From Eledone cirrhosa (taxonomy: Eukaryota), in contig OZ024743.1 in the NCBI GenBank assembly GCA_964016885.1, positions 249,736,001 to 249,800,000 on the forward strand: a stretch of 64,000 nt of DNA. The letters run 5' to 3'. A program made the position numbers and the translations under genes. Of the stretch, positions 12,858 through 61,991 are shown piece by piece. The notes beneath the pieces are model-generated. The model saw only the letters and a program-made list of their open reading frames with translations. It was not told the DNA's origin and did not search any database. Each line of letters begins with the position of its first letter. The first letter of the stretch is position 1.

Positions 12858-12905
12858 CTGATGATTTCCTTCGAATGAAACAGTACTAGTCCTGTAGAAG
12901 CCATT
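12858..12905 (+). ncRNA. Hammerhead ribozyme-like motif (stem I displaced)
   Basis: CTGATGA-tttc cttc gaat-GAAA-cag tactagtc ctg-TA. Same family as 61214-61270, but the upstream stem I strand is offset by about 6 nt. Confidence 0.6.
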
Positions 12906-12987
12906 TCTCTATTAAATATGCATATATATATATATATATATATATATATATATATATATATATATATATATATATATATATATATAT

Positions 12988-14561
12988 TATTAAAATAACA
13001 GATTAAAGTTTAAGCAAAGAATCGCTGCTTTCACCCTTAACGGGATCTTCTGAAACTAACAAAGTCAATCTGTAAACGCAGAACTGGATATTTCAAAAAA
13101 CGTTGCAACCGGAGGAAGACAGGAAGACGATACTTTGGTTCGTAGAAACGTTCGCTGGCTAAGAACGGGAAAAAACGAATATAATACGTCATTAATAGGA
13201 GCGGTGAAAAACAATTACGCGCAAAGACAGAACCACGTTTATGGCATAAAAGAGGTCGTTGACTAATGTTCTTTTAGGTGGTTCATAGAGACGTTCTCTG
13301 GCAATGAACGAAAAAACGAAGATAATACGTCATATGTGGAGCGTAGAGAACAATAGCACGCAAAGACAAAACCACGTAAATGGTATAGCAGAAGTCGTAG
13401 ACTAAATTCTAACTAGGAGACCGAATGAATCTCCGCTACAGAGTTAAGAACAAAGTAAATAAATACAATACAGAAGTAATAGAAATAAATAAATACAAAC
13501 ACGCAAACAAATACGTACATACACAAGCATACGCAAAAACTTACCATAGGTAAACAAAACCACGCACATATAAATATGTGTGTGTGTGTAAGCGTGTCTA
13601 CAAATAAATAAATAATTATATAAACGTATATAAATAAATAAATACGTATATAACAAGCATACACACATACCTACATGTAAATACACGAATGTTCGGAGAC
13701 GTAAGTCAGCCAAAACATGAAGTACACATATACACACGCCCTACATACGTACGAACCTGCATACTCACACAGACGCAAAACTCCCGTATACACATAGCCA
13801 AACCATATGTACCAGAAATATAAAAAAATGTATACGCCATAACAATCAAATATACGTACGCGAAGGTATACGTACCTTCACAAAACATACGGATAATATA
13901 TACTTACCTATGCAAATAAGTAAAGGTATAAACAAACATATACTTAGCTCCCACATCGAGACGTAAAATATCCACGTATAGATCGAACTATCCGTTAGGG
14001 TATAACGTGGGGCTGTAATACAGGAAAGTTTTGTGCAATTTATGTTTACAAGCCGAAATTGCCTCAGATTTTTTGTTCAAGATGTGGTCTGTGGCGTAGA
14101 GTATTTCCAGGGCCTCAGCGGCGCAGAGGTCACATGGTCTTTTATTTCCGTTATACGATCTAGCCCTAGCTAGGATCTCCCAGTGTAACTTATATTGGGT
14201 GTGGTTGTCTTTTATACTCCAGATATAAGCTGAAAGTGACGTCATATTCCTTCTAAGAGGGTAACGAAAAGAATGGGTATGCATGTAAAGACGCTGCTTG
14301 AGCCAGCGAACGTTTCCACGAACCGAAGTATCGTCTTCCTGTCTTCCTCCGGTTGCAACGTTTTTTGAAATATCCAGTTCTGCGTTTACAGATTGACTTT
14401 GTTAGTTTCAGAAGATCCCGTTAAGGGTGAAAGCAGCGATTCTTTGCTTAAACTTTAATCTGTTATTTTAATAAATATTTGCTCTACGGTTCTTATATAT
14501 TTGATATATATTTATCCTTATCGAGCCCTCTTTGGATTTTAGTCTTCAAATTTATTATTAC
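12988..14561 (-). mobile_element. Penelope-like element copy A: 5'-truncated GIY-YIG end, 3' region, inverted terminal arm and tail, within (TA)n
   Basis: ~170-bp inverted arms (12988-13160 and 14300-14475). ORF 13988-14284 encodes TSLSAYIWSIK..WEIL..CDLCAAE..ILNKKSE..CKH (PLE endonuclease C-terminus). Extra tail at 14476-14561. Confidence 0.9.
14404..14454 (+). ncRNA. Variant hammerhead-like motif in the PLE terminus (other copies 13007-13057 -, 15021-15071 -, 16834-16884 +)
   Basis: AGTTT-CAGAAGA-tccc gttaa gggt-GAAA-gca gcgattctt tgc-TT-AAACT: 5-bp stem I, stem II, stem III, CUU triplet, core U4A. Confidence 0.6.
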
Positions 14562-15000
14562 TATATATATATATATATATATATATATATATATATATAT
14601 ATATATATATATATATATATATATATATATATATGTGTGTGTGTGTGTGTGTGTGTGTGTGTGTGTGTATATATATGTATATATATATATATATAAATGT
14701 GTGTGTGTATATATATGTATATATATATATATATATGTGTGTGTGCGTGTGTATATATATGTATATATATATACATATATATATATATATATATATATAT
14801 ATGTGTTTGTATATATATATATACACACACACACACACATATATATATATATATATATATATATATATATATATATATATATATATATACATATATATAT
14901 ACACACACACATTAGAGACGGTGGATTACCTGGGCTGGGTTTCAATCTCAGTCAACGTCTATAGATATATATATATATATATATATATATATATATTTAT

Positions 15001-16998
15001 TTATTAAAATAACAGATTCAAGTTTAAGCAAAGAATCGCTGCTTTCACCCTTAACGGGATCTTCTGAAACTAACAAAGTCAATCTGTGAACGCAGAAGTG
15101 GATATTTCAAAAAACGTTGCAACCGGAGGAAGACAGGAAGACGATACTTTGGTTCGTGGAAACGTTCCCTGGCAAAGAACGGGAAAAAAACGAATATAAT
15201 ACGTCATTAATAGGAGCGGGGAAAAACAATTACGCGCAAAGACAGAACCACGTTTATGGCATAAAAGAGGTCGTTGACTAATGTTCTTTTAGGTGGTTCA
15301 TAGAGACGTTCTCTGGCAATGAACGGAAAAAACGAAGATAATACGTCATATGTGGAGCGTTGAGAACAATTGCACGCAAAGACAAAACCACGTAAATGGT
15401 ATAGCAGAAGACGTAGACTAAAATTCTAACTAGGAGAGCGAATGATTCTCGGCTTCAAAGTTAAGAATAAAGTAAATAAAATACAGAGGTAATTAAAATT
15501 AAATAAATACATACACGCATCCATATACGTACATACACAAGCATACATAGGTATACAAATACACGCACATATAAATATGTGCGTGTGTGTGTGCGTGTAT
15601 ACAAATAATTAAATAAACGTATATAAATAAATAAATACGTATATAACAAGCACACACACATACCTACATGTAAATACACAAATGTTCGGAGATGTACGTC
15701 AACCAAAACACAAAGTACACATAAACACACACCCTACATACGTACGAACCCGCATACTCACACAGACGCAAAACTCACGTATACACATAACCAAAAGCAT
15801 ATGTACCAGAATTTATATAATATACGCCATAACATATACAATCAGATATACGTAAGAGAAAGTATACGTACCGTCACAAAACATACAGGTAATATATACT
15901 TACCTATGCAAATAAGTAATGGTATAAACATAACATATACTTAGCTACCACATCAAGACGTAAAATATCCGCGTATAGATCGTACTATCCGTTAGGGTAT
16001 AATGTGGGGCTGTAATACAGGAAAGTTTTGTGCAATTTATGTTTACAAGCCGAAATTGCCTCAGATTTTTTGTTTAAGATGTGGTCTGTGGCGTAGAGTA
16101 TTTCCAGGGCCTCAGCGGTGCAGTCGTCACATAGTCTTTTATTTCCGTTATACGATCTAGCCCTAGCTAGGATCTCCCAGTGTAACTTATATTGGGTGTG
16201 GTTGTCTTTTTGGACTCCAGATATAAGCTGAAAGTGACGTCATATTCCTTCTTAGAGGGTAACGAAAATAATGGGTATGCATGTAAAGACGCTGCTTGAA
16301 TCTATTGGCGGTTAACCCTATGTAGGCCCTACAGGACGTGGGTGTTTCAACCTTACATTTGTAGACAATGTTACTAGAGAGGCATTTCCCGGATATGGGG
16401 CAATCAACCCGATTCCTACAATTACAGTTAGTACTAACTACAGGGTTGCACGTGTTCCTACGGCTAGGTAGTTTAGCTAAATTTGAAACTGTGATGTTAT
16501 GTGCAAGGTTAGGAGTCGTAGAGTAAGAAATTTTAATAGTATTTCTATTAAAAATGTTACTATATTTATGTTTAGGGGGAAAATGCATTGTAATAAGGGA
16601 TAGAAAGATCTTAGCTAATGGTGTGGCCACCTCCATATTATATGGTGGGTTATACCATATAATGCGTCGGGATCTATTTCTTCTAGGTCTATTCTCGTAC
16701 TCAGTGTATGCTACCTTATCGACAAATTCACTCCGAGCAAGAGCTTCATTGTAATATGTATCGTCTTCCTGTCTTCCTCCGGTTGCAACGTTTTTTGAAA
16801 TATTCACTTCTGCGTTCACAGATTGACTTTGTTAGTTTCAGAAGATCCCGTTAGGGGTGAAAGCAGCGATTCTTTGTTTAAACTTTAATCTGTTATTTTA
16901 ATAAATAAATATATATATATATATCTTATATATTTGATATATATTTATCCTTATCGAGCCCTCTTTGGATTTTAGTCTTCAAATTTATTATTATTACT
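15001..16998 (-). mobile_element. Penelope-like element copy B (Hydra-clade-like), longer truncation, inverted arm and tail, within (TA)n
   Basis: Near-identical to copy A; arms at ~15001-15150 and ~16757-16905; same tail at 16925-16998. Confidence 0.92.
15986..16760 (-). pseudogene. PLE linker and GIY-YIG endonuclease remnant
   Basis: RRIIWYNPPY, IFNRNTIKISYS, CNCRNRVDCPISGKC, IVY...AYIGLT..FKQRLYMH; frameshift near 16210, then a CxxC-containing C-terminus. Confidence 0.9.
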
Positions 16999-61151: not shown

Positions 61152-61204
61152 ATGAGATTCTACAGGACTAGAACTGTTTCATTCTTTAGAAATCATCAGG
61201 AATC
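61152..61204 (-). ncRNA. Hammerhead ribozyme, left member of a divergent pair
   Basis: On -: GATTC-CTGATGA-tttc taaa gaat-GAAA-CAG ttctagtc CTG-TA-GAATC; intact core and stem III, GUA site. Confidence 0.8.
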
Positions 61205-61213
61205 ATGAGAATC

Positions 61214-61270
61214 ATGAGATTCCTGATGATTTCTAAAGAATGAAACAATTCTAGTCCTGTAGAATCTCAT
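61214..61270 (+). ncRNA. Hammerhead ribozyme, right member of a divergent pair
   Basis: ATGAGATTC-CTGATGA-tttc taaa gaat-GAAA-CAA ttctagtc CTG-TA-GAATCTCAT; perfect 9-bp stem I, one mismatch in stem III. Confidence 0.8.
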
Positions 61271-61991
61271 GTATATTAAAACTTTTATACTCTGCTATGT
61301 ATTGAGTACCTTACTTACTGTGGTTACCTCCGATTCAACCCGGAATAACGTATATATATATATATATATATATATATATATATATATATATATATATATA
61401 CATGCATATACATATATATGTATATATATATATATATATATATATATACATGCATATACATATATATATGTATGTATATATATATATATTTATATATATA
61501 TATATATATATATATATATATATATATATATATATATATATATATATGCATATACATATATACGTATATATATATATGCATCCATATACATGTATATATA
61601 TATATATATATATATATATATATATATATATATATATATGCATGCATATACATATATATATATGCATGCATATTCATGTATACATATATATATATATGTG
61701 CATGCATATACATATATATGTATATATATACATATATATTTATATATATATATATATATGTGCGTGTGCATATATATATGTATGAGTATGTTGTGTATGT
61801 GTGTATGTATATATGTATATATAAGTGTGTGCATGTGTGTGTGTGTGAAGTGACACATAGCTTGACTGAGTTTCACAATGTAACACTGCAATAATTTAAC
61901 TCAGCAAGTTGGATAGATTCAACAGCCAAATGAATAAACAAATAAACAAATAGAAATAAAAAACAGCACCTTGAGTCTTTTTTTTGTTTAT

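Follow-up and report, generated by a model that had tools for sequence, protein, structure and literature searches.

Short islands bearing hammerhead ribozymes lie dispersed beside (TA)n microsatellites in a 64,000-nt stretch of the Eledone cirrhosa genome (the window), within positions 12858..61350. Our analysis points, with fair confidence, to most of these islands being 5′-truncated pseudo-long terminal repeat (pseudo-LTR or pLTR) ends, often joined head to head, of protein-coding Penelope-like elements (PLEs) of the Hydra type, accompanied by one retrozyme family, and to a common bulged hairpin as the likely determinant of where the reverse transcriptase (RT) starts. We call the short hammerhead-bearing islands minis. 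An earlier reading of the window (the sequence-only reading) had described them as several unrelated, non-coding, pLTR-only families mobilized by PLEs like those at 13–17 kb.

A type-I descriptor found four complete hammerheads in the window, with cores at 41840 (+), 44956 (+), 61199 (−) and 61223 (+), compared to a mean of 0.12 and a maximum of 1 in 100 block shuffles with microsatellites kept fixed. The intact motifs previously placed at 41834, 44948, 61152 and 61214 are thereby confirmed, with the one at 61152 assigned to the minus strand. The palindromic stem III ascribed to most of them is complete at 41840 but only 75% at 44956 and 62–75% at 61.2 kb, where it comprises 4 bp closed by an 8-nt loop. 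We then sampled the genome outside the window (390 kb in total, taken as 39 10-kb segments placed at round-number coordinates) and obtained 50 hammerhead matches, 42 of them with a canonical core. Ninety percent of the 50 lie within 200 bp of (TA)6+, compared to 26% of background positions (no shuffle was run alongside this count), in agreement with the claimed (TA)n association. Extrapolated from this sample, the genome would hold roughly 3–4 × 10^5 matches. In a 1.19-Mb collection, which is query-enriched and not random, 326 distinct matches fell into 36 clusters, 17 with at least two members. That several dissimilar multicopy Hydra-type families carry Penelope-type type-I hammerheads in (TA)n is thus upheld. 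Minimum-energy folds of five single hammerheads gave no three-way junction, which we do not take as evidence either way. Rfam returned microsatellite artefacts throughout the 150 matches listed of 296 for the window, and 0 hits and 5 chance hits for two pLTRs, with no hammerhead or hairpin family among them.

For families A, C, G and P, the pLTR could be linked to an autonomous PLE, a check that the sequence-only reading had proposed. Family A, at 61.2 kb, consists of an inverted short arm (61151..61204, minus strand) with the intact core at 61199 and a direct long arm (61218..61350, plus strand) with the core at 61223 and a tail, the latter being the pLTR end of an element with a 713-aa open reading frame (ORF) of the type seen at locus L078. 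At that locus, a hammerhead, the 713-aa ORF and a second hammerhead follow one another. Long family A copies extend upstream into the 3′ region, and tandem copies go from the tail into the ATG. The 32-nt core of this family has 13,492 exact matches in the genome (0 for the reversed control), and its protein is 51% identical to that of family P, at 13–17 kb, whose parent ORF has 710 aa. Family G, with 38,191 exact matches, is represented by a mini at 25181..25330, in which a minus-strand arm with hairpin 1 (25227–25252) faces a plus-strand arm with half of a U3-A8 hammerhead (25269–25319); that only the 3′ half is present here had been overlooked. The family G core is U3-A8, and the canonical core for this family has no match genome-wide. 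The parent, found in locus L380, is organized in tandem as a 3.1-kb unit whose single open frame spans 786 codons (ORF of ∼718 aa), and its protein is 49–53% identical to those of A and P. Family C (44255..45052, plus strand, 5′ limit by eye) is the 3′ end of a Hydra-type element, with its hammerhead at 44949–45011 and the short end; it runs into an ORF that is frameshifted and shares 43% identity with that of A. In locus L390 (4500–4640), the RT of the family C ORF is followed by asparagine-rich sequence that resembles the N-rich inserts of Adineta Penelope ORFs.

Two truncated copies of family P lie in the window. The first (12987..14561) has an ORF remnant at 13994–14371 (−), variant hammerheads at 13008–13057 (−) and 14404–14453 (+), and hairpin 1 at 14481–14526 (+); the second (15005..17000) has an ORF remnant at 16187–16831 (−) that includes CxCX5C, with variant hammerheads at 15022–15071 (−) and 16834–16883 (+). 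All four hammerheads, and another near 50949, have the core CAGAAGA (U4 to A), and none of them had been noticed earlier. This core may be inactive or may represent a new variant. Family P is young and high-copy, and the core of family H (below) is similar.

The translated ORFs of A, P and G (713, 710 and ∼718 aa) each combine an RT with a C-terminal GIY-YIG endonuclease, as read from YRDD and a C-terminal YIG, and those of A, P, G and C contain a CxCX5C linker. DKT, in place of DKG, occurs in all four proteins, as does RWR, a conservative variant of the RWK of the Hydra clade. By eye, the C-terminal parts of A, P and G show CxxC and CxH, which in this clade are expected around the conserved E and N, and the absence of CCHH, also expected, was likewise judged only by eye. 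In the accessible text of Craig et al. 2021 (PMC8557442), the Hydra clade is characterized by CxCX5C, DKT and RWK, and the supplement lists an octopus member, Hydra-1_Obim. The C-terminal endonuclease-positive (EN+) PLEs described there also share with ours a pLTR hammerhead, (TA)n insertion, an inverted 5′-truncated copy and a tail at one end, the last two being already published features; RWR and the very high copy numbers in E. cirrhosa set our elements apart. The pLTR hammerhead and (TA)n insertion are present in our Hydra-type parents, with variant cores in P (U4A) and G (U3-A8). Judged by these motifs, the parents of A, C, G and P are PLEs of the Hydra type.

The tail shared by several islands is a hairpin. 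Its outer stem has 4 bp (RCUC/GAGY), with a 2-nt bulge (UU, UC or UA) on the 3′ side; the inner stem ends in a loop that varies, and ACU comes after the hairpin. Full elements have the order hammerhead, hairpin 1, hairpin 2, ATG and RT-endonuclease ORF. Three of the four places at which a common tail had been reported stand, namely 61290 (+), 45369 (−) and 25227 (−) (0 in 100 shuffles), the first being hairpin 1 of family A (61289..61309, plus strand). The fourth, at 29390, does not: it matches only a looser tail pattern, found 21 times in the window against 21.25 expected by chance, and we list 29389..29410 (+) as a decayed hairpin-like tail, family not found. Across the 390 kb, the descriptor gave 48 matches, compared to 17.1 in shuffled sequence (12 shuffles), and 27 of these hairpins lie at most 130 nt upstream of (TA)n, compared to 1.08.

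We applied the descriptor, derived from the E. cirrhosa genome, unchanged to other organisms. The set comprised 78 related loci from metagenome contigs (36–44% protein identity), 54 of which have at least 100 nt before the ORF. With an inner stem of at least three pairs, 28 of the 54 upstream regions match (shuffle mean 0.44); with at least two pairs, 43 match (shuffle mean 1.07), compared to 1 on the antisense strand. The loci were merged into 44 lineages, although L302 and L309 still resemble a single one. Between hammerhead and ATG, two hairpins are found in 30 lineages and three in 1, and paired hairpins are spaced 54–83 nt apart. At three of the outside loci (L290, L303 and L320), the hairpin is immediately preceded on its 5′ side by a (TA)n run, at the inferred start site.

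Pairing within the hairpin was counted with hairpins chosen by the outer stem alone, leaving the inner pairs unselected; a MAFFT alignment of 53 hairpins, in which gaps in the 5′ strand were misplaced, was kept out of these counts. The first inner pair is Watson–Crick in 71 of 72 hairpins (49 C-G, 21 U-A and 1 G-C), compared to a mean of 54.8 and a maximum of 61 in shuffles. The second position pairs in 50 (30.1 in shuffles) and the third in 49 (28.5). This first pair depends on the register with a 2-nt bulge and does not exceed chance in any other. The outer stem, in which pairing follows from the selection, also occurs as ACUC/GAGU in E. cirrhosa and as GCUC/GAGC, UCUC/GAGA or GUUC/GAAC in the outside loci. 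Of 33 lineages, three were too short for a protein tree; on the tree of the other 30, hairpin 1 requires 8 changes at its inner pair, of which strong branches force at least 5.

In the well-sampled families, 3′ ends concentrate at two positions, both of which lie a few bases 5′ of a hairpin. Of 238 insertion ends, 225 were usable (13 were dropped because the reference lacked hairpin 2), and 181 of these fall 3–10 nt before the hairpin, compared to 30.9 expected if ends were uniform. Modal gaps are mostly 4–9 nt, at hairpins whose distance downstream of the cleavage site ranges between 27 and 398 nt. Hairpin 2 of family G, whose presence the model had led us to expect beforehand, lies 7 nt after the long end.

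From these data we infer that the hairpin positions two internal starts of reverse transcription. The RT-endonuclease, probably as a dimer, would bind both hairpins of one RNA and nick (TA)n on both strands, and one cDNA would be primed just 5′ of each hairpin. The products would be one short and one long (tail) arm, joined head to head via a few bases of microhomology. A related arrangement is known from Poseidon_Ac (Frangieh et al. 2024, PMC11167929), for which the accessible text describes two internal RT starts that bound the tail and a requirement for the RNA 3′ of them, with hammerhead cleavage dispensable in vitro. The likeness extends to nicking and extension of both strands and to a predicted dimer, features that in our case belong to the proposed model. 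Poseidon_Ac differs in belonging to another clade and in having its starts inside the ORF, in an AC-rich stem-loop, with a binding motif that is hypothesized but, in the text available, left undefined. By analogy, the hairpins would be the 3′ signal that the RT needs in the Hydra clade.

In families A and G, the cDNAs might then run off the 5′ end of the mRNA after 40–140 nt. Of 81 family A arms, 48 end within 8 nt of the core, and 31 of 34 incidental family G copies end inside stem II, leaving the G minis without half of the ribozyme. These pile-ups lie 30 (A) and 29 nt (G) after a TATA-like box, which in family A is a TATAWAW at −36 from the core. Whether the A and G templates began at an mRNA 5′ end made from a TATA promoter in the pLTR, with cDNAs running off it, is in our estimate evenly balanced. 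Resulting minis, without promoter and hairpin 2, would be dead ends. In the sources as far as accessible, Penelope of D. virilis has a TATA-less internal promoter, and a TATA box has been proposed in the pLTR of Adineta elements. A more general version of the model has, we think, about an even chance of being right: a clade-wide twin hairpin, one per dimer subunit, would fix both starts, account for the tail and the head-to-head arms, serve as a passport for retrozymes and, combined with a pLTR promoter, produce tens of thousands of run-off insertions resembling strong-stop products.

A number of observations weigh against this picture. Hairpin starts in the end test were placed by hand, as the automatic finder missed or misplaced those in B, P, F and family 11; the end samples of A, B and C were enriched by queries containing one end; and ends adjoining (TA)n are uncertain by a few bases. 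None of five family F ends fits the hairpin rule, and the second end of family B is diffuse. The hairpin is weak, as its outer stem appears in the minimum-energy folds of 7 out of 14 natural contexts (counted by eye), and hairpin 2 of family A is a plain 4-bp stem lacking the bulge. Nine of the 44 outside lineages have one hairpin and four have none. Pfam gave no family at E ≤ 0.01 for three of the proteins. As for the 5′ ends, TATAWAW occurs at −37 to −46 from the core in 7 of 20 outside loci and is absent from 11; family P has no pile-up, with 3 of 34 copies ending at stem I; and family D does pile up (9 of 17), but a TATA box was not visible 30 nt upstream. On account of P, D and C, we reject a general rule that places a TATA box at −30; for family C, no upstream reference was found in the 5′-end comparison.

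The behaviour of D and P is also what would be expected if the 5′ pile-ups came from stalling or fold-back of the RT at RNA structure (hammerhead stem I or II, or quasi-palindromes). Family A junctions do use a 5-nt quasi-palindrome in stem I. Nevertheless, A and G stop at different sites in the ribozyme, yet at the same distance from the TATA-like box, and we rate stalling a real contender, somewhat short of an even chance. Posed simply as run-off from a transcript 5′ end versus structure-driven stalling, the question is for us about a toss-up.

The hairpin could be real and have another role, as a signal in DNA, or in single-stranded DNA, that directs the endonuclease or integration, or as a site of translational autoregulation, with the nearby ends a by-product. 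Hairpin 2 is indeed close to the ATG (its 3′ strand is mostly 18–54 nt upstream in the outside lineages), and Frangieh et al. 2024 (PMC11167929), in the accessible text, cite previous findings that the endonuclease needed the tail to recognize plasmid DNA. We consider this unlikely: covarying inner pairs under a loop of highly variable length are more readily explained by a folded single strand than by a duplex site, family B retains both hairpins despite being non-coding, and insertion ends track the hairpins across their range of distances from the cleavage site.

The origin of the minis was assessed in 16 head-to-head family A pairs, drawn from the first listed matches on contig 1. A diagnostic allele is common to both arms in all 16 (chance 0.51 each), and 13 combine a long arm with a short one (chance 0.48 each). 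The junctions are of 11 types, and the most frequent type occurs with both alleles. So many junctions among 16 pairs argue for independent truncation events and against a master mini-element, and the data fit repeated events of this kind, each presumably from one RNA primed at two sites. The description of the islands as non-coding is correct for these copies but not for most of their families, and non-autonomous status is retained only for 41840 (family B), those at 61.2 kb, 44956 and 25225 being pLTRs of ORF-bearing elements. Nor does mobilization by PLEs like those at 13–17 kb survive: A, C and G each have their own coding element, different from the 13–17 kb one (to whose protein those of A and G are 51–53% identical), and thus no mobilization in trans is needed. 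That the islands are nonetheless independent non-autonomous pLTR-only families amplifying in trans, as first proposed, is improbable: the abundance of the short forms, the recurrence of some junctions 2–3 times, the non-coding tandem family B and the missing parent of family H would suit it, whereas the ORF-bearing elements with the same pLTR in A, C, G and P, the diversity of junctions and the fact that minis stop before hairpin 2 speak against it.

Family B (352 exact cores) forms tandem units of 655–657 nt with one type-I hammerhead each, a longest stop-free frame of 57 aa and a GC content of 33%. On these sequence criteria (tandem, non-coding, low in GC, one type-I hammerhead per unit) it is a non-LTR retrozyme; A, C and G are not, their tandem units carrying an ORF. 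The window holds a partial unit at 41827..42189 (+), with its hammerhead at 41836–41910, which ends at the short end of the family and so lacks the hairpins. The complete unit retains both, and is therefore likely copyable in trans. Family B resembles published non-LTR retrozymes (Cervera and de la Pena 2020, PMC7229834; Li et al. 2026, 10.64898/2026.07.22.740005) in the properties just listed and in being likely PLE-mobilized, and differs from those known, as far as the accessible texts go, in its two Hydra-type hairpins and two-end signature. Family H (45325..45462, minus strand; variant hammerhead at 45422–45462, hairpin at 45369–45392) is old, with best copies 81–91% identical, and its parent was not found among the 30 loci fetched.

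Minimal hammerheads, single or opposed, have been attributed to truncated PLEs (Cervera and de la Pena 2014, PMC4209133), and ours agree with those in the accessible text in being mostly single motifs, with opposite-strand pairs, a U3-A8 variant and palindromic stem III; a fixed U4A core (P) and half-hammerhead minis (G) do not appear in that text. Twin hairpins go unmentioned in the accessible parts of PMC8557442, where the supplement text has no occurrence of “hairpin”, and “hairpin” and “tail” have none in the text at hand of Li et al. 2026 (10.64898/2026.07.22.740005). Our search, which covered few subscription papers or supplementary figures, found no publication on a twin hairpin in PLE pLTRs. 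The elements are thus of known kinds, and they carry a cis-signal that seems not to have been described before and that brings an open question of mechanism within reach of experiment. PLE RTs are the sister group of telomerase RTs, and how they choose an internal start on RNA is that question; the sole in vitro study located the starts but left the signal undefined. A ∼20-nt hairpin that shows compensatory changes in nature and sits at a fixed distance from the insertion ends offers a mutational handle on start choice, could make a PLE-based RNA-to-DNA insertion tool programmable, and provides a test of which retrozymes use which PLE. For annotation, most hammerhead matches in the genome would be reclassified as debris of a few coding families.

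Six further hammerheads had been listed as imperfect or decayed, and four of these can be kept. Those at 12858 and 19690 are decayed copies of the family A clan, one an arm starting at the core (12858..12917, plus strand) and the other an inverted and direct pair (19680..19810); 43198 (43198..43239, plus strand) is a decayed member of a family whose hammerhead is intact in a copy at locus L013; and 45424 belongs to the old family H, which has copies with a CAGAUGA core. The motif at 40019 (40020..40057, plus strand) is probably a decayed hammerhead, with only partial homologues, one in L072, read by eye. We rejected 29205, which has neither a hammerhead fold nor a hammerhead homologue.

Some hammerhead families near (TA)n have no visible bulged hairpin (L092, L093, L038, L085 and L013, in clusters 5, 9, 14 and 20, and 43198 in the window). 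They probably represent another PLE clade. Cluster 5 has a single 3′ end only, at 120–135 nt. Another multicopy, (TA)n-flanked repeat (19440–19669, minus strand) carries a bulged hairpin at 19524..19548 (−), and no hammerhead was seen in the 120 nt before it.

The window also contains other features. A fragmented non-LTR retrotransposon with endonuclease and RT frames at 4785–10050 (+) is, we assume, L1/Tx1-like, and 1678–2406 (−) is presumably a mariner-like transposase remnant, going by a motif. An RTE-like RT fragment at 40096–40790 (−) belongs to a repeat common in the fetched loci, and 20682–21185 comprises 2.6 tandem copies of a 191-bp repeat, resembling a short interspersed element, that is frequent in the loci. 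Probable host exons lie at 3170–3410 (+; a transporter-like C-terminal exon) and 35328–36953 (−; a second gene). A 32-bp tandem array occupies 1–266, and a long degenerate 17-bp tandem array spans 58664–59438.

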